Origin: a virus | DNA length: 32,176 nucleotides | Virus genome (UHGV): UHGV-1443735 | Reading direction: 5' to 3' (one strand) | Shown: piece after piece, positions 2,151 to 21,580 of the stretch | Numbering within the stretch: the first letter of the stretch is position 1 | How the letters are laid out: every line of letters starts with the position of its first letter | Notes under the pieces: model-generated | Database searches by the model: none | What the model saw: only the letters and a program-made list of their open reading frames with translations | Told to the model about the DNA's origin: nothing | Translations under genes and position numbers: made by a program

Positions 2151-2890
2151 GACTGCACTCCTTTGCGAATTTGGTAGGCATGGACGCGCATTATGTCGAT
2201 TGCCTTCGATGTGACAGGATGCTGATGGTTCATCATCGCAATGACTGTGTTAATCGCTGAATCCACACCCTGCGCCCGCACTTCAGCCAGAAAAGCATCG
2301 GTGGCTGGGGTTTTGTTATCTGACTCCAGCCACTGGTTGTAGTAATAATCGAACATGCCAGTAGGATAACCACATCCGCTGTGCACGTGGTCTTTCATAG
2401 CAGAACCACACATGCAGTAGTCATTGTCAGTATTACTAATGATGTCGATAAGTTGCTGTGTCCGTTGCTTCAACATCGCATTCTCCGCCGCCAGCGCCGA
2501 AAACTTCTCGTGTGCCAACTTAACAGCTGCATCAGCCTGCTTAATTGACTCAGTCGCTTTCTGGTGGTCTTCGGCCAGCCCTGCTAAATCAGCCTCCAGT
2601 TCGGCTAGGCGTTCATTTAATGCATCTCGTTCATCCAGTAGTGCCAGCGCAACATTTGGATTAAAAGCAGCAATAAATTCAGCGTTTGCATAAGCCTGAA
2701 CATCTGTTTCAACCAGGCAGTTAACATGACATTCCGCAATCACACCACCGGGTTCTCCTTTCCATTTTTGACAAACAAAAACTCCTGTTATATTCCCATG
2801 CTGATTGCCCGATGTATGCCCTACGATGTAGCTCCCTTTCGTTGCCTGCTCTGCCGCCTCACGCAGTGCCTGATAGTCAATCTTGCTCAC
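2147..2890 (-). CDS. Ea22-like family protein (about 247 aa)
   Basis: Motifs [15 protein letters not shown] and ALALLDERD plus a coiled-coil middle. Start refined to GTG at 2890, preceded by GGAGG at 6-nt spacing; the ATG at 2911 lacks an RBS. Confidence 0.7.
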
Positions 2891-3072
2891 TGGTTGCCTC
2901 CTTTGCGCCACATCGCATTCAGATATTTGTTGTCATTAACAGAACCGAAACTCTTTCTCTTAAGCAATTCCTCTCTCGATGGCATTGGCTTTACGCGTTG
3001 GCGAATAATCATTTCTGCCGGAAGAATGCCGGGATTGTATGCAAGTCCTCTCATGGTAAATTCCTCAGTCAT
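2887..3072 (-). CDS. small hypothetical protein (about 61 aa)
   Basis: ATG at 3072 overlaps the stop of the upstream gene (ATGACTGA). The longer ORF-track version (to 3207) overlaps the neighbouring gene out of frame and is less likely. Confidence 0.4.
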
Positions 3073-3361
3073 TACTGATAGCGCCATAGCGTGAGCGGTA
3101 ATTACGCAGGCGCGGGTCGATATATTCAGGGAAGTGGGTATATGTGGCTTTGCGGAATGGTCGGATTGATGTCTGGTAAATTCGCTCGCGTTCTTCTTTC
3201 TCTGCAAGCCATATACAATGGCGAAATTCCTTTTCCTCTTTCGTTTCCTGCGGTAGCGACATTATCAGGTCGTAGTTTTTTCTGAATTTATCCAGCACCT
3301 CCGATACGGAATTGCCGGAACAGCGGCGCGGGTCATCCGCACCATACAGAGGCGCTGGCAT
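3065..3361 (-). CDS. hypothetical protein (98 aa)
   Basis: ORF immediately downstream of the SSB-like gene; AAGG-like RBS upstream of the ATG. Confidence 0.55.
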
Positions 3362-14899: not shown

Positions 14900-15258
14900 A
14901 CGAATATCAGTTTGTGCTTCCATACCCGCCGTCGGTGAACACCTACTGGCGAAGACGGGGAAGCCAATACTACATCAGCGATAAAGGCCAGAAATACCGA
15001 AAAGATGTACAGCAAATAATCCGCCAACTCAAGTTAGACATTTTCACCAAATCACGACTCCGCATCAAAGTCATCGTAGACGTTCCGGACTCCCGCCGTC
15101 GCGACCTCGACAACATCCTGAAAGGTTTACTCGACTCCCTTATCCACGCCGGATTTGCGGAAGACGACGAGCAATTCGATGAAATTCGCGTAATTCGTGG
15201 TGTGAAAGTACCAGGCGGACGGCTTGGAATAAAAATCACTGAACTGGAGAACGTATGA
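14896..15258 (+). CDS. rusA: RusA-family Holliday junction resolvase (120 aa)
   Basis: Similar to E. coli RusA (...PPSVNTYW...VPDSRRRDLDNILKGLLDSL...GGRLGIKITEL). Confidence 0.88.
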   Translation: MNEYQFVLPYPPSVNTYWRRRGSQYYISDKGQKYRKDVQQIIRQLKLDIFTKSRLRIKVIVDVPDSRRRDLDNILKGLLDSLIHAGFAEDDEQFDEIRVIRGVKVPGGRLGIKITELENV

Positions 15259-15443
15259 ACGCCACAATTCAAACGATACCAGAGCTTCTTATCCAGACAC
15301 GAGGCAATCAGACCGAAGTGGCGAGGATGCTTTCCTGCGCAAGAGGAACAGTGCTCAAGTACAACCGAGACAGCAAAGGCGAGCGTCACGTAATAGTTAA
15401 CGGCGTCCTGATGGTCAAACAGGGCAAGAGGGGAAGACGATGA
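15255..15443 (+). CDS. ninH: NinH-like protein (62 aa)
   Basis: ...GNQTEVARMLSCARGTVLKY...IVNGVLMV resembles lambda NinH. Confidence 0.7.
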   Translation: MNATIQTIPELLIQTRGNQTEVARMLSCARGTVLKYNRDSKGERHVIVNGVLMVKQGKRGRR

Positions 15444-15928
15444 GCATAAGAGAAATAAACCTCACCAAAGAACAGCACGATTGGCTGAATGGCTGGCTTG
15501 AACTGTGGGGCGCATGGGTTTATTCAGGTCGTCTGGAAAAGCGCATGAGCAGCGTAATAGCGAAGTTCATGGAGAGCGTAGAGCCGGGAAGAGTTATGAC
15601 AAGGCCAATGTGTAATGATGATGATGGAATGTTGATTTCTCAGGTCGTCGATTCCGTCATGTGCATTGACAAGAAAGCCTTTGGAATCCTCCTCAGCTAC
15701 TACGCTCATGGCTCTTCCAAGCACGCCATTGCATCTTACTATCATCGCGTCGCAAGACCTCGCAAGATGTTATGCCGGGGCGGCGGGCGCATTCAAAAAC
15801 CATCGCTCGCAACCTGTCGCCGGGAAGTTGACGAAATCCTCAATGCCTCGTTGTTTATGATTTATCCGGTTCTGGATAGTGCGTTTAAAAACCGGAAACG
15901 TGTAGAGAAAATTAAACATGTAGCATAG
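15440..15928 (+). CDS. putative late-gene antiterminator, Q-like (162 aa)
   Basis: Last gene before the tR-prime-like terminator and lysis cassette; family assignment is from position and weak recall only. Confidence 0.5.
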   Translation: MSIREINLTKEQHDWLNGWLELWGAWVYSGRLEKRMSSVIAKFMESVEPGRVMTRPMCNDDDGMLISQVVDSVMCIDKKAFGILLSYYAHGSSKHAIASYYHRVARPRKMLCRGGGRIQKPSLATCRREVDEILNASLFMIYPVLDSAFKNRKRVEKIKHVA

Positions 15929-15972
15929 AACGTGTTGATATCATTGAGCAAATGAGCAACACTATTCGCATA

Positions 15973-16017
15973 AGCTGCCGTTAGTGACTCTTAAGTTGCA
16001 ACGGTGGCTTTTTTTTG
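15973..16017 (+). terminator. rho-independent terminator (tR-prime-like) shortly downstream of the Q-like gene
   Basis: 10-bp stem (two G-U pairs) with 17-nt loop, followed by a run of 8 T. Confidence 0.7.
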
Positions 16018-16267
16018 CTTGCACAACAGGTAAGAGCATTGAACCCGCAGACCTCGCGGAATTGGTGAAAGGTGCCGCGCAGTGCAATTATCGTTGTGGT
16101 GAATGCGCAGGCTGATGCGCTAACTTATCAGCTAGATGGTGAGGTAAAGGCTCACCATGGCGACGACGGGTAGTTCATTTACATGCCGGAAAACACAGCA
16201 CCGGTCACCACACACCAAATACATACCAGGACCATAAGAGCAAAAGCTCAACGCACTACCCTCTATT

Positions 16268-16292
16268 GCCCACCGCGCCGTGGGCTTTTTTA
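16268..16292 (+). terminator. second rho-independent terminator upstream of the holin gene
   Basis: Stem GCCCAC/GTGGGC with CGCGCC loop followed by TTTTTTATT. Confidence 0.7.
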
Positions 16293-16399
16293 TTGCAGGC
16301 CGCAGATATCATTTTCAGATGCCATGTAGCAATCAGAGTCTGACGGCCTTTCCCCTACAAACACACACAGCACCATCCGGAAAATCGGAGGTGAGGCCT

Positions 16400-16723
16400 A
16401 TGAAAATGCCATACAAACAAGATTTCATCGCTGCGCTACTTGCCGCCAAGGAGCAGGGTATTGGTGCAATGCTGGCTTTTATCATGGCGTATCTGCGTGG
16501 TCGCTATAACGGCGGCGCGGTAACAAAAACGCTAATTGATGCGCTGATGTGCGCGATGATTGCCTGGTTCGTTCGTGACCTTCTGGACTTTATCGGCCTG
16601 AGCAGCAACCTCGCCTACATAGCCAGCGTCTTTATTGGATACATCGGCACCGATTCGATCGGCAATCTTATTAAAAAACTTGCAGCAAAAAAGGCGGGAG
16701 TTGACGATGCAAACCAGTCCTGA
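16400..16723 (+). CDS. S: holin S, lambda type, with dual-start motif (107 aa)
   Basis: [39 protein letters not shown]... closely matches lambda S, including the Met1-Lys2-Met3 dual start; the ORF-track start at 16280 is an extension. Confidence 0.9.
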
Positions 16724-17156
16724 CGGAATTGCTCTGATAAAAAAATTTGAAGGTTGTCGGCTGACTGCTTACCCCGACCCCGGAACGGGAGATGCGCCGT
16801 GGACCATCGGCTATGGCTGGACCCATCCGGTTGACGGAAAGCCAGTAAAGCGCGGTATGACTATCGACCAGCAAACCGCTGACAGGCTTCTGAAAACAGG
16901 GCTTGTTGGTTATGAGAATGACGTGCTGAAAGTTGTCAGGGTGAAGCTGACACAAGGCCAGTTCGACGCACTGGTGTCGTTCGCTTACAACGTTGGGTCG
17001 CGTGCTCTTTCCACATCTACACTGCTGAAAAAGCTGAATGCTGGCGATATAAAAGGCGCGGCAGATGAATTTCTGCGCTGGAATAAATCAGGCGGAAAGG
17101 TGATGCCGGGGCTCACGAATCGCCGCAAGGCAGAGCGAGCTCTGTTCCTGTCATGA
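16707..17156 (+). CDS. R: endolysin, phage lysozyme (GH24, T4/P22 gp19 type) (149 aa)
   Basis: ...[31 protein letters not shown]... lysozyme motif; ATG at 16707 with GGCGGGAG RBS overlapping the holin 3-prime end. Confidence 0.88.
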
Positions 17157-17620
17157 TTAGCGCACTGGTTAAGCGTTACTGGCTGCAGTTGCTGGTGCTG
17201 GCGTTAATCGGCGCACTGGCTTTCTTCGTGAACCACTACCGCGACAACGCCATCACTTACAGAGACCAGCGCGATAAGGCCACTGAGAAACTCCTCCTGG
17301 CGACCGCCACCATTAAAGACATGCAGACCCGCCAGCGTGATGTCGCTGCACTGGATGCCAAATACACCGGAGAACTGGCTGATGCGAAAGAAACCATTGA
17401 GCGTCTGCATAGCGATGTCATTGCTGGCCGTAAGCGGCTGCAAGTCGCCGCCACCTGTGCAAAGTCAACGACCGGAGCCAGCAGCATGGGCGATGGAGAA
17501 AGCCCAAGACTTACAGCAGATGCTGAACTCAATTATTACCGTCTACGAAGTGGAATCGACAGGATAACCGCGCAGGTTAACTACCTGCAGGAGTACATCA
17601 GGACGCAATGCCTGAAATAA
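17153..17620 (+). CDS. Rz: i-spanin Rz (155 aa)
   Basis: ...[22 protein letters not shown]...[20 protein letters not shown] closely matches lambda Rz. Confidence 0.88.
17382..17567 (+). CDS. Rz1: o-spanin Rz1 (lipoprotein), embedded in Rz in the +1 frame (61 aa)
   Basis: [20 protein letters not shown] has a signal peptide and lipobox (LAVSGC), followed by a Pro-rich segment; lies wholly within Rz. Confidence 0.75.
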
Positions 17621-17651
17621 TTTTTTTGCAAATCACAAAGTCCATTTAATG

Positions 17652-17676
17652 AGCCTCGCGATGCGGGGCTTTTTGC
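17652..17676 (+). terminator. rho-independent terminator after the lysis cassette (first of two)
   Basis: 8-bp stem (one G-U pair) followed by TTTTTG. Confidence 0.55.
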
Positions 17677-17681
17677 AATAA

Positions 17682-17706
17682 ATGCGTACCGCAACGCATG
17701 TTTTTT
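17682..17706 (+). terminator. rho-independent terminator after the lysis cassette (second of two)
   Basis: Stem ATGCGT/ACGCAT with 6-nt loop followed by a run of 6 T. Confidence 0.65.
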
Positions 17707-17821
17707 ACACCGAACCTGCCCCTTTGGAATGGGCCTTTGAGGATACCAGTTAGTGCTGGCGAGCCTCGGTGGGCTGGTTTCCTGTGCGGCAAAGGTTCAT
17801 TTCAAAGAGTAGGTACACGCT

Positions 17822-18319
17822 ATGAAATCATTAACCCTCTTCAATCAACCAATTCGTATCGGTGAAGATGGCATGATCTGCCTCACTGATATGTGGAAAG
17901 CCAGTGGTAAAAGTGAATCTGAATCGCCTTACCACTACCTGCGAAACAAGCAGACCAAAGAGTTCTTAGCCGAGTTGGAGAAAAACCACGAATCTGTGGT
18001 TTTTACTGAGCGCGGTGTACACGGTGGAACATATGGCGGGAAGTTTGTTGCTTACGATTATGCGGCTTGGTTAAACCCCGGGTTCAAGTACGCGGCCTAT
18101 AAAGTCCTCGATGACTACTTCACCGGAGAACTTCAGCATCGCAACAGCTTAAGTGCGCAGCTCAACATGAAATGTCATGAGTTTGACCAGAAGAAAGACA
18201 TGGCGAGCTTCTGCGGACAAGGGCTGGCAGCATGGCGCTATACGAAGCCAGTGTTGGTCGCTGAGATTAACTCCCTGGCTAACCAGCTGCAGATTACGAT
18301 CCCCGGGCTTCCGGGATGA
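17822..18319 (+). CDS. KilA-N domain protein (165 aa)
   Basis: N-terminal region (...IRIGEDGMICLTDMWKASGKSE...EFLAELEKN...YAAWLNPGFKYAAYKVLDDYF) resembles the KilA-N/APSES-type DNA-binding domain. Confidence 0.6.
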   Translation: MKSLTLFNQPIRIGEDGMICLTDMWKASGKSESESPYHYLRNKQTKEFLAELEKNHESVVFTERGVHGGTYGGKFVAYDYAAWLNPGFKYAAYKVLDDYFTGELQHRNSLSAQLNMKCHEFDQKKDMASFCGQGLAAWRYTKPVLVAEINSLANQLQITIPGLPG

Positions 18320-18585
18320 GTGATCGTGTCATTGAATGCGCCTCCAGAGCGGGGCGCGACTTCTCAGAGTTCATGAAAGGCGAGAAGGGCATGATGGAAG
18401 CATTGGCCTCGGTGGATGAGTTTGGCGAGCAGCTGCGCCTCAACGGCTGTGTCAATCATCACTTTGTTAGCTACATGATGCGGAACTCGATCATGCAGGC
18501 ATTCATGGACATGGCAAAAGCCGAGAGGAAAGAAGAGCGCCGGCGTAAGCGAGCGGAAGCAAAAGCAAAAGCAAAAGTGAAGTAG
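18316..18585 (+). CDS. hypothetical protein (89 aa), basic C-terminal tail
   Basis: ATGA overlap with the KilA-N gene; Lys/Arg-rich C-terminus. Confidence 0.5.
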   Translation: MSDRVIECASRAGRDFSEFMKGEKGMMEALASVDEFGEQLRLNGCVNHHFVSYMMRNSIMQAFMDMAKAERKEERRRKRAEAKAKAKVK

Positions 18586-18879
18586 CCATTACAAAGCCTA
18601 TCTACGGATGGGCTTGATAATGAAACCAAAATTTATTCTTGGCAACCAGTTACGGCAGTACCACGAAGCAACCCAAGCCAGTAAGTGGGGAAATAACACT
18701 GGCAGCCACTGAAAGATGAACCTCCTGCCTTATGGCAAAAAAGATTATTTGTGGTGGCGGACTGATGGAAAGACATCGGTTATTGCAGAGACCATTCAAT
18801 GAGTGGTCTCGACAATGGCTTATACCCTACACGGGATAACTTAACTGATATCCCTTTTAACGGATAAACGGAGCCAACA

Positions 18880-19122
18880 ATGGCAGAGATTATTCCCATG
18901 ACTGAAGAACAGAAATTCCAGTTAGAGATTTACAAGCTGGTCATGAACCAGAACGCAGCCGCAGAAGAAGCATTTCAATTCATTGGCACTGACGAACTGA
19001 AGCTTGAGCTATTTAAAATTCACTTCCAGTCAGGTGGCGCTAATTCAGATATCACGACCCGAACTATCGAAGCGGTGCGTAAATCGAGGGAAGCGTTAGA
19101 CCTGTTCACCACCGGAGCATGA
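18880..19122 (+). CDS. hypothetical protein (80 aa), translationally coupled to the HslV-like gene
   Basis: ATG with ACGGAG RBS; stop lies 1 nt before the start of the downstream gene. Confidence 0.55.
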   Translation: MAEIIPMTEEQKFQLEIYKLVMNQNAAAEEAFQFIGTDELKLELFKIHFQSGGANSDITTRTIEAVRKSREALDLFTTGA

Positions 19123-19123
19123 T

Positions 19124-19612
19124 ATGACCACTATTGCATGGGATGGAAAGACCCTGGCATCTGACACCCAGGCATCATCTGGTGATGTTGTGTGTTCGTA
19201 TACAGAACAAAAGATTTACACACCGCCAGAATCTGGGTGGGAGGTTTGCGGCAGTAAAGTGGTTGCATTAGGTTGTTCTGGTGATTGCGGCGCGGAGATG
19301 GAATTGCAGGAACTGCTTAAGAACAACCTGACGTATGCATCAGAATTTCTCCCGACATTCTCTTTCACCGCGCTTGCTATCATCGGTGCTGGTCGTGCTT
19401 ACATCATCTCAAAAGAGAAAGGCGAAACGCGGGCGAGTATTTCGCGACAGGTTGAACCGTATGCCATTGGTAGTGGTTGGCTGATTGCTCGCACAGCCAT
19501 GCACTGCGGCAAAAATGCGAGAGAAGCGGTACAAGTCGCAATTGATATTGACTGCTATTCCGGCGGCAGCGTTGATTCGTTCCCCGCTGGGAAGCAAACA
19601 GAAGGGAAATAA
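19124..19612 (+). CDS. HslV/proteasome-like Ntn-hydrolase family protein (162 aa)
   Basis: After Met removal the N-terminus is TTIAW... (Thr nucleophile). Segments align by eye to E. coli HslV: SDTQASSG vs GDGQATLG, a Lys near position 30, [10 protein letters not shown] vs AGFAGGTADA, and AIGSG vs AIGSG. Confidence 0.6.
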
Positions 19613-19617
19613 TCAAT

Positions 19618-20106
19618 ATGGCAGCACCAAAGGGCAACCGATTTTGGGAGGCCCGCAGTAGTCATGGGCGAAATCCTAAATTCGAATCGCCTGAGGCGCT
19701 GTGGGCTGCTTGTTGTGAATACTTCGAGTGGGCTGATGATAACCCACTATGGGAGGGTAAGGTATTTTCATATCAGGGAGAAATAATTAAGGCTAATGTC
19801 CCTAAGATGCGAGCCATGACTATTTCAGGATTGTGTACCTTCCTTGATATCACCAGGCAAACGTGGGGAACCTTCCGGTCAATGGAAGGTTTTTCTGACG
19901 TCACATCACGAGCGGAAGACATCATCTACGACCAGAAATTCTCTGGCGCAGCCGCTGACCTTCTCAACGCTAACATCATCGCCCGTGATTTGGGCCTCAA
20001 AGAGCAGTCGCAAGTTGAAGACGTGACACCTGATAAGGGAGATCGCGATAAGCGGCGCTCTCGTATCAAGGAGCTATTCAACCGTGGAACTGGACGCGAT
20101 TCTTGA
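19618..20106 (+). CDS. terminase small subunit (P22 gp3-like) (162 aa)
   Basis: [38 protein letters not shown]... matches my recollection of P22 gp3; directly upstream of the large subunit. Confidence 0.85.
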
Positions 20107-21580
20107 TAACCTGAGCGACGAAGAGCAAATCGAGTTGCTCGAGCTACTCGAAGAAGAAGAGAACTACCGGAACACACACCTGCTATATGAATTTACGCCA
20201 TACAGCAAACAGCGTGAGTTCATCGACGCCGGACATGACTATCCAGAGCGCTGTTTTATGGCTGGTAACCAGCTTGGTAAGTCATTTACTGGTGCTGCTG
20301 AAGTCGCGTTTCACCTTACCGGGCGTTATCCGGGCACAAAAGGCTATCCTGCTGATGGTAAATATGGCGGTGAGTGGAAAGGTAAGCGTTTCTATGAGCC
20401 TGTTGTCTTCTGGATTGGCGGCGAGACAAACGAGACGGTAACCAAAACGACTCAACGCATCCTGTGCGGTCGTATTGAAGAGAATGATGAGCCGGGCTAC
20501 GGTTCAATACCGAAAGAGGACATCATTAGCTGGAAGAAGTCTCCTTTCTTTCCGAACCTTGTTGATCATCTTCTGGTTAAGCATCACACGACTGATGGCG
20601 TTGAAGATGGCATTTCAATCTGCTACTTCAAACCATACTCGCAAGGCCGCGCTCGCTGGCAGGGTGACACAATCCACGGCGTGTGGTTTGACGAAGAGCC
20701 ACCATACAGCATTTATGGCGAAGGTCTTACCCGTACCAACAAATACGGGCAATTCTCAATTCTGACGTTTTCCCCGCTGATGGGGATGTCTGACGTTGTT
20801 ACCAAGTTCCTGAAGAATCCCAGCAAGTCGCAGAAAGTGGTCAACATGACCATCTATGACGCTGAGCACTATACCGACGAGCAGAAAGAGCAAATCATCG
20901 CATCCTATCCTGAGCATGAGAGAGAGGCGCGTGCTCGCGGTATTCCTACGATGGGTAGTGGTCGAATCTTCCAGATACCGGAAGAGACTATTAAGTGTCA
21001 GCCGTTCGAGTGTCCTGATCACTTCTACGTCATCAATGCAATGGACTTCGGATGGGATCACCCACAGGCACACATCCAGCTTTGGTGGGATAAAGACGAG
21101 GACGTGATTTATCTTTCTCGCGTCTGGAAGGCCAAACAGAAGAAGGCGACAGAGGCATGGAGTGCTGTTAAAGCATGGAGCAAAAACACCCCTACGGCTT
21201 GGCCTCATGACGGGCATCAGCACGAAAAGGGAGGCGGCGCTCAGCTCAAGGAACAATACGCCGACGCTGGGTTCGATATGTTGCCAGATCATGCAACATG
21301 GCCTGATGGAGGTAATGCGGTCGAACCCGGGATAGCAGAGATACGCGACATGATGCTCGACGGTCGTTTCAAGGTATTTAACACCTGCGAGCCATTCTTT
21401 GAAGAGTTTCGCCTGTATCACCGCGATGAGAACGGGAAGATCGTCAAGCTAAATGACGACATCCTTTCTGCTGTTCGCTATGGCTACATGATGAGGCGTT
21501 TTGCAATACAGATGCGAGACATCAAAGATCCTAAAGAGATTGATTACTCAAGCTACAACATACCTTGCGGAGTTGGATGA
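20084..21580 (+). CDS. terminase large subunit (P22 gp2-like) (498 aa)
   Basis: Large ORF after the small subunit, with conserved ATPase and nuclease regions; GTG start overlapping the small-subunit 3-prime end. Confidence 0.88.

Follow-up and report, generated by a model that had tools for sequence, protein, structure and literature searches.

The region between the lysis genes and the terminase genes of the virus genome UHGV-1443735 was analysed in a stretch of 32,176 nucleotides (nt), which is referred to as the window in the following. It contains four accessory genes and a 294 bp spacer. The explanation that we consider probable is that the region consists of late-operon accessory cassettes, which are independently exchangeable, are read through by Q antitermination and are separated by conserved boundary elements of structured RNA. 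The genes code for a KilA-N protein (17822-18319), an 89 amino acid (aa) protein with a basic tail (18316-18585), a DUF2560 protein (18880-19122) and an HslV-like peptidase (19124-19612). All of them are encoded on the + strand with stops and starts that overlap or nearly abut: the first two genes overlap in an ATGA, the last two are 1 nt apart. A preceding sequence-only reading had described these two coupled pairs, two terminators behind the lysis gene Rz and a gap poor in open reading frames (ORFs) between the pairs, and all of these were recovered (the longest ORF in the gap, 18586-18879, codes for 35 aa on the + strand and for 49 aa on the − strand). Two other parts of that reading did not hold. 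The four genes do not behave as one functional unit, and the gap, which had been treated as empty, shows the strongest conservation within the region.

The accessory genes assort independently

We typed the neighbours of the spacer in 119 IMG/VR loci that share a 23-mer with it; the upstream slot could be scored in 82 loci, the downstream slot in 94 and both flanks in 64. The upstream slot is occupied by Rha-type genes in 32 of the 82 loci, by other KilA-N genes without hkbL (the HK620 counterpart of the gene for the 89 aa protein) in 17, by KilA-N165 together with hkbL in five and by KilA-N242 together with hkbL in two; 26 loci have nothing from the reference set there. Downstream of the spacer, DUF2560 was found in 74 of the 94 loci and the HslV-like gene in three. 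The position of the latter is alternatively taken by hkbN/orf59c, Dec, orf129 or an HNH gene, and most loci have DUF2560 without the HslV-like gene. All 64 loci with both flanks scored lack the four-gene combination, which is not the pattern of a single co-inherited system. Only KilA-N and hkbL behave as a pair, and this pair is also located behind Rz in Stx phages and HK97-like phages. An obligate pairing of DUF2560 with the HslV-like gene was considered and rejected; each is found without the other.

The position, proposed to be the usual place for cargo genes in P22-like genomes, is a variable accessory slot, and the four genes are separate cassettes. P22, phage L and a Serratia relative differ there: P22 has rha, the pid moron and orf80/orf59c, and phage L has Dec. 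The genes are not uniformly conserved core genes of the late operon, since the content of the slot varies, no morphogenetic role is known and P22 orf80 is reported to be dispensable. According to the domain analysis, the first slot always carries a domain-shuffled regulator of the "Bro-network": Phage_pRha with ORF11CD3 in P22 Rha, KilA-N with ORF11CD3 in the window and KilA-N with P63C in mEp234.

The part from 17600 to 19120 is 96-98% identical to the annotated HK620 (hkbK, hkbL, hkbM), to Dewey and to many Escherichia coli prophages; for the region in general, identities of 93-98% to HK620, Dewey and thousands of E. coli prophages were obtained. The whole stretch 17600-19650 is covered to at least 80% in no complete E. 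coli genome. What is new is the gene combination; each uncharacterised accessory gene and the variable region itself are known.

Other genes were observed in the slot. A divergent P22-like prophage of Serratia marcescens (GCA_023643745.1, positions 2371-2652 of locus L130) has a gene for a 93 aa Acb2/Tad1 hairpin protein (PF24729), a family with anti-CBASS and anti-Thoeris members, directly behind Rz, followed by an 80 aa ORF, a variant of the boundary hairpin described below and DUF2560. Dewey has a gene inserted between KilA-N and the terminators behind Rz (2705-3256 of the locus); it codes for an endonuclease with HNH_3 and AP2 domains, as is typical of homing endonucleases of the free-standing type. 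In HK97-like and Stx phages, HNH genes are found behind the spacer as well.

The spacer is highly conserved

The 294 bp spacer was found with 88-97% identity in 208 phage records, including P22, L, HK620, CUS-3 and the HK97-like phages mEp234, mEp235 and HK446, and at a coverage of at least 80% in 1064 of 5426 complete E. coli genomes. Its most widespread piece is 68 bp long (18801-18868) and occurs alone in approximately 1500 further E. coli genomes, O157 Stx prophages included. Nucleotide diversity in 18701-18879 is 0.012-0.014 (75 unique copies), compared to 0.025, 0.012 and 0.088 at the first, second and third codon positions of DUF2560; the spacer is thus about as constrained as second codon positions. 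Its predicted fold has a z-score against shuffled sequences of −5.3 on the + strand and of −4.0 on the − strand. The core of the spacer (18652-18795) is identical in 136 of 146 positions (93%) to P22G and lies in the same strand and genomic position. P22G and P22F are + strand small RNAs which accumulate in P22 infection (2026 study, PMC13397905, Table 2). RNAalifold found no compensatory pairs among 40 spacer copies, because these are nearly identical; covariation became visible only once divergent leaders and paralogous or heterologous copies of the hairpin module were gathered.

The inverted repeat GGGATA-N10-TATCCC, already noticed in the sequence-only reading, is located at 18833-18854, and a repeat search extends it to 19 nt arms with 74% complementarity. 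Homology to P22 ends at 18838 and resumes at 18866, and the 630 bp that P22 has in between carry the pid moron (PMC3573128). The inverted repeat therefore sits at the empty pid moron site.

Phage L has no counterpart of 18832-18868. Due to this loss, the spacer ORF that starts at 18732 continues in frame into a divergent DUF2560 allele, yielding the "orf118" of phage L and ST64T (1654-2010 of the phage L locus). Many DUF2560 calls of 102-129 aa in databases (e.g., P0221-P0227) probably arose from a comparable over-extension of the N-terminus. In some E. coli prophages (FORC_028; 2662-3033 of locus L126) and in the Klebsiella phage phiKp_30, a Phage_gp49_66 gene (PF13876) is inserted in the spacer at 18777/18779.

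A hairpin module recurs at cassette borders

Two copies of a hairpin module are located in the spacer, both on the + strand. Copy 1 (18588-18621) begins 2 nt after the hkbL stop and reads AUUA-CA-AAGCCUAUC-UACG-GAUGGGCUU-GA-UAAU. Copy 2 (18782-18816) reads AUUG-CA-GAGACCAUUC-AAU-GAGUGGUCUC-GA-CAAU and is followed by the conserved box GGCUUAUACCC. The module consists of a 4 bp outer stem (AUUA/UAAU or AUUG/CAAU), a CA/GA internal loop, an inner stem of 9-10 bp and a loop of 2-6 nt. The window contains exactly these two copies, compared to 0.0 in shuffled sequences. Across loci, 40 distinct variants were collected in 283 copies from 216 loci. Pairing is conserved: in an alignment of 17 variants 97.5% of the cells are paired, compared to 32-49% in slid controls, and six of the 14 pairs are compensatory. 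Several variants, such as the copy of phage L, keep pairing only via G.U pairs, a type of pairing that is possible on the + strand alone. A search of genome contigs with a gapped pattern of the module yielded 120 matches, all of them due to chance and located in unrelated AT-rich genomes, and did not recover any true module.

The module often starts 2-3 nt past the TAG stop of hkbL, of the Gp49-family gene or of other ORFs and mostly has no U run. Two mosaic junctions coincide with it. In Stx phage 1717, copy 1 runs straight into the tail of copy 2, and the inserted Gp49-family gene, which brings its own module variant, lies directly before copy 2.

A metagenomic P22-like contig (L135, 2429-3000) carries a homologue of copy 2 with a run of six U and a second terminator before it, both located behind a small uncalled ORF whose product (containing EWISVNDRLPE) is presumably DUF551-like. 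This suggests that the module can double as a true terminator.

Terminators and a leader hairpin follow Rz

Both terminators behind Rz are intrinsic and conserved. Terminator 1 (17651-17674, +) is GAGCCUCGC-GAU-GCGGGGCUU followed by a U run; RNA folding gives a G+C-rich 9 bp stem (17651-17671) with the U run extending to 17674. It is invariant in all 13 aligned sequences from three divergent lineages, P22 and two divergent leader types included. Terminator 2 (17682-17706, +), found with a terminator scan, reads AUGCGU-ACCGCA-ACGCAU followed by GU6, with the stem at 17682-17699 and T6 at 17701-17706. Its hairpin is kept in relatives and shows one compensatory pair (CG in seven and UA in five of 12 distinct sequences), and its U run is restricted to the window-type leader. 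Both sites have the G+C-rich stem-loop and directly following U run of Rho-independent terminators.

Further downstream a long leader hairpin (17711-17810, +) ends approximately 10 nt short of the ribosome-binding site of KilA-N. Positions 17728-17808 (+) are identical to P22F in 81 of 81 nt, again in the same strand and genomic position. Its minimum free energy has a z-score of −3.5 for the + strand, compared to −1.9 for the − strand. In the leader alignment (17621-17830, the same 13 sequences) the structure comprises 37 pairs, both terminator hairpins included, of which nine are compensatory (eight in the long hairpin and one in the terminator 2 stem), compared to 0-1 in slid controls; 99.8% of the cells are paired, compared to 39-50% in the controls.

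The region had been described as insulated by these terminators. This can be kept for the terminators themselves, and it has to be qualified because Q antitermination of the late operon would leave only unmodified polymerase to be stopped by them. There is no support for transcription of the cluster as a unit of its own, since a promoter prediction found no sigma-70-like site on the + strand in 15800-20200, the gap included (a crude scan for one promoter type). The own promoter expected of a moron was likewise not found in this interval.

A model for transcription and exchange of the cassettes

Based on lambda and P22 biology, we propose that in lytic growth Q-modified polymerase would pass the tR'-like terminator downstream of Q and both post-Rz terminators. 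The late transcript would therefore be the source of KilA-N/hkbL and DUF2560/HslV-like protein, with translational coupling inside each of the two pairs. Unmodified polymerase in a lysogen would be halted by the same terminators, which would keep the accessory genes silent. As judged from its anatomy, the boundary hairpin might serve as processing signal or as 3′-stabilising punctuation in the late mRNA, and might also provide a short shared homology for gain, loss and swap of cassettes. The HslV-like protein is a rare add-on with an intact Thr-1/Asp/Lys set, DUF2560 a nearly constant and dispensable component.

Several points weigh against this picture. The read-through and the silence in the prophage rest on analogy to lambda and P22. 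P22F and P22G could be nuclease-resistant debris of late mRNA, and the study that reported them demonstrates their abundance, not their function (PMC13397905). The fold searches with the two small proteins point to no function. The module is not the sole site of recombination, because breakpoints at 18645-18652, 18828-18831 and 18868 fall elsewhere. The module alignment mixes paralogous copies, and the compensatory changes stem from few independent lineages, with five of the 13 leader sequences belonging to one lineage. Some relatives (L133/L134) have no spacer before DUF2560, and P22 tolerates the replacement of orf25-orf80 in the laboratory, so that the spacer is nonessential in its 3′ part at least.

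A more specific proposal, which we put forward tentatively and regard as doubtful, is that the module AUU(A/G)-CA-[9-10 bp variable stem]-GA-(U/C)AAU, located 2-3 nt past accessory stops, is a dedicated cassette-boundary element of lambdoid late operons. It would act in RNA processing and 3′ end protection, yielding small RNAs of the P22G type, and would in addition offer DNA micro-homology for gene exchange among P22-like, HK97-like and Stx phages. Such an element may be a functional analogue of integron attC sites without an integrase. We found no published description of this repeated boundary hairpin; Clark et al. 2001, which was beyond the reach of the search, may describe the module.

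Alternative explanations

Among the alternatives, the one that survives best is that the 294 bp gap is a functionless, decaying moron remnant, with the hairpins as leftover moron terminators. The spacer contains a documented moron insertion point and is wholly absent in some relatives, P22 grows normally without orf25-orf80, and the homologous hairpin of contig L135, with its U6 run and another terminator before it, is terminator-like. We nevertheless consider it unlikely, since the diversity of 18701-18879 is approximately seven-fold below that of the neighbouring synonymous sites, pairing is kept by compensatory changes and by G.U changes that fit the + strand only, and the module recurs behind unrelated genes with the CA/GA loop and the outer stem conserved.

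Somewhat less likely still is that the cluster is defence or counter-defence cargo, in which KilA-N/hkbL and the HslV-like protein act on host immunity and not on phage development. The genes are variable and dispensable as is typical of arms-race cargo, the equivalent slot of the Serratia P22-like prophage carries the Acb2/Tad1 hairpin gene, and KilA-N partially matches PDC-S22, a candidate system in PADLOC (E value 1.2e-8, approximately 30 residues). However, this match, the sole one in PADLOC, reflects only a shared domain, the other three proteins gave none, and the timing of a late operon is ill-suited to early counter-defence.

We regard it as improbable that the gap encodes small proteins, for which the ORFs 18608-18712 and 18732-18839 would be the candidates; Dewey annotates ORFs of 30 aa and 35 aa there. 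The ORF from 18732 is open in most copies, phage L fuses it to DUF2560, and many DUF2560 calls are extended to 102-129 aa. However, the first ORF is out of frame in eight of 40 copies due to an indel (alignment column 67), an ATG is changed to AAG in one copy, and a frameshift in an A-run disrupts the second ORF in another. Neither ORF is preceded by a Shine-Dalgarno sequence or matches PHROG, Pfam or NCBIfam, and the observed substitutions fit base-pairing.

Finally, that the four genes are one co-selected functional unit, for example a regulator with protease cargo, is very improbable and largely refuted by the co-occurrence data: they are adjacent and co-oriented in two coupled pairs, an IMG/VR contig (L040) has the same arrangement with 98% identity as far as it extends, and Dewey has all four with two extra genes inserted, but the combination is absent from the loci with two typed flanks, 17600-19650 is covered to at least 80% in no complete E. 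coli genome, each gene has many different neighbours, and other prophages have the HslV-like gene and lack the three remaining ones.

The encoded proteins

The KilA-N protein (165 aa) corresponds to HK620 hkbK. Pfam identifies an N-terminal KilA-N domain (PF04383, residues 9-101, E value 1.3e-15, 57.6 bits with a cut-off of 23.8) and a C-terminal ORF11CD3 domain (residues 109-161, E value 2.4e-13, 50.5 bits with a cut-off of 25), which is also present in P22 Rha. The protein matches PHROG 129 ("transcriptional regulator") and shares 96% aa identity with the copies of HK620, Dewey and Stx phages. It is predicted to be a DNA-binding regulator of the Bro-network.

The 89 aa partner corresponds to HK620 hkbL and is HK97 gp73-like (phrog_875). 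Its tail KAERKEERRRKRAEAKAKAKVK is rich in Lys and Arg, and the AlphaFold2 model consists of three helices with a long basic C-terminal one (predicted local distance difference test, pLDDT, 92). G13-S17, G44-N47 and C45 are invariant in 21 homologues, and C8, H48 and H49 are conserved in at least 90% of them; C45, C8, H48 and H49 may form a metal site. The tail is four residues longer than in the usual 85 aa protein, and this extra length coincides with a threefold tandem repeat of GCAAAA (18560-18577).

The DUF2560 protein (80 aa, HK620 hkbM and P22 orf80) covers the complete Pfam profile (PF10834, 1-72 of 72, E value 1.1e-43, 147.7 bits with a cut-off of 25), and its AlphaFold2 model has four helices (pLDDT 87). 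In P22, orf25, orf80 and pid have been replaced by a chloramphenicol resistance (CamR) cassette; orf25 and orf80 were stated to be unneeded, and orf80 is reported to be dispensable for lytic growth and lysogeny. Foldseek searches of PDB and BFVD with the models of the 89 aa and the DUF2560 protein gave no informative fold, all matches being either at chance level or to uncharacterised proteins.

The 162 aa protein encoded 5 nt upstream of the gene for the small terminase subunit (TerS) is predicted to be an N-terminal-threonine peptidase of the HslV/proteasome-beta type. This membership rests on the match to phrog_1040 ("peptidase HslV family", E value 3.7e-37) and on the family profile, which matches proteasome beta and HslV chains of known structure with E values of 1e-9 to 1e-7; the single sequence found nothing in PDB, and the family profile was needed. 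No Pfam match was obtained at an E value of at most 0.01; Proteasome (PF00227) is detected in 11 of 48 homologues and not in this one. The protein starts with MTT, and M1, T2, D14, K30, G116 and G118 are invariant in the 48 homologues. D14, K30 and the G-S-G motif align with D, K and GSG of the proteasome beta chain 3h4p. With its catalytic residues intact, the peptidase is a clean candidate for biochemistry.

Among 50,697 phage records the HslV-like allele is shared only by Dewey. In Morganella, Citrobacter and Pantoea prophages the gene is found without DUF2560 between the lysis genes and a Terminase_2-type TerS, and in Klebsiella and jumbo phages it is placed elsewhere. A general linkage of the HslV-like gene with the terminase was therefore rejected: several temperate phages fit, and the Klebsiella phages, the jumbo phages and a metagenomic contig (L140) break the rule.

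Surroundings of the region

The source of the window is a mosaic P22/HK620/CUS-3-like coliphage or prophage, whose late region is approximately 94-95% identical to E212, CUS-3, JEP4 and others. On the + strand, Q (15440-15928) is followed by the strong tR'-like terminator (16268-16285), by holin, endolysin and Rz (17153-17620, Pfam Phage_lysis), and, behind the accessory genes, by TerS (19618-20106), TerL and portal. Within 15800-20200 there are 11 terminator-like sites, compared to 5.0 +/- 2.3 expected from shuffled sequences.

Rfam gave no credible family for 15000-21000 (E value at most 1) or for the gap (at most 10), a tRNA scan found no tRNA, and none of six ORFs has an NCBIfam match. Functional studies of DUF2560, hkbK, ORF11CD3 or phage HslV were not found in the literature.

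A stretch of 47 nt between Q and holin (16124-16170, +, CAGCTAGATGGTGAGGTAAAGGCTCACCATGGCGACGACGGGTAG) matches a small-subunit rRNA model with 38 bits and an E value of 3.8e-8, below the gathering score. It belongs to the late leader and precedes the tR'-like terminator, and we take it to resemble E. coli 16S rRNA near positions 240-290.

Significance

As a gene cluster the region is ordinary: it belongs to a well-populated, already annotated variable region of P22-like phages. What changes is the picture of it, with the genes as separate cassettes and the "empty" DNA as the constant part. The structured RNA set is present in approximately one fifth of the complete E. coli genomes (coverage of at least 80%), and a fragment of it in approximately one quarter more. 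If mRNA processing and cassette exchange are indeed organised by the hairpins, these would be a concrete, testable case of the "boundary sequence" model for lambdoid mosaicism, which has long been debated, and would provide a mechanism behind the P22F and P22G small RNAs.

Comparison with known systems

The closest annotated arrangement is hkbK-hkbL-hkbM of HK620 (NC_002730; Clark et al. 2001), which has KilA-N, an 85 aa partner, the spacer and DUF2560 between Rz and gene 3 with approximately 96% nucleotide identity. HK620 differs by the 59 aa hkbN in place of the HslV-like gene, by another TerS and by approximately 65 extra bp at 18635/18642, and its partner protein is four C-terminal residues shorter than that of the window. 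The P22 region rha-orf25-pid-orf80-orf59c shares terminator 1, the P22F hairpin, a Bro-network regulator ending in ORF11CD3, P22G, module copy 2, the moron site and DUF2560. In contrast to the window, P22 has a Phage_pRha N-domain instead of KilA-N, no hkbL and no module copy 1, pid is present at the site that is empty in the window, and orf59c takes the place of the HslV-like gene. Dewey (PQ850600) has all four genes in the same order with an HslV-like allele of 90% aa identity, and differs by the HNH_3-AP2 gene before KilA-N and a 95 aa ORF between DUF2560 and the HslV-like gene.

With HslV and the 20S proteasome beta subunit, the peptidase shares profile similarity over the whole length, the Met-Thr start, the Asp, the Lys and the G-S-G motif. 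It differs in having only 162 aa, in falling below the Pfam threshold and in having no gene for an HslU-like ATPase nearby. The HslV-like genes of phages are scattered single accessory genes in temperate and jumbo phages.

The concept of "boundary sequences", short and conserved, that separate lambdoid modules goes back to Susskind and Botstein 1978 and Clark et al. 2001, as cited in PMC3029335. The hairpin module resembles these and moron terminators in being conserved, short and located at cassette borders with mosaic junctions, and it forms a hairpin like moron terminators do. It differs from the boundary sequences by its defined, repeated and covariation-backed structure, mostly without a U run. 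Hairpins of the T7 RNase III type consist of two stems around a small internal loop and are located between the genes of a polycistronic phage transcript. The stems of the module are shorter (4-5 bp and 9-10 bp). It is alike in having two stems and an internal loop and in lying between genes, and by analogy either hairpin would remain at the 3′ end of the upstream mRNA.

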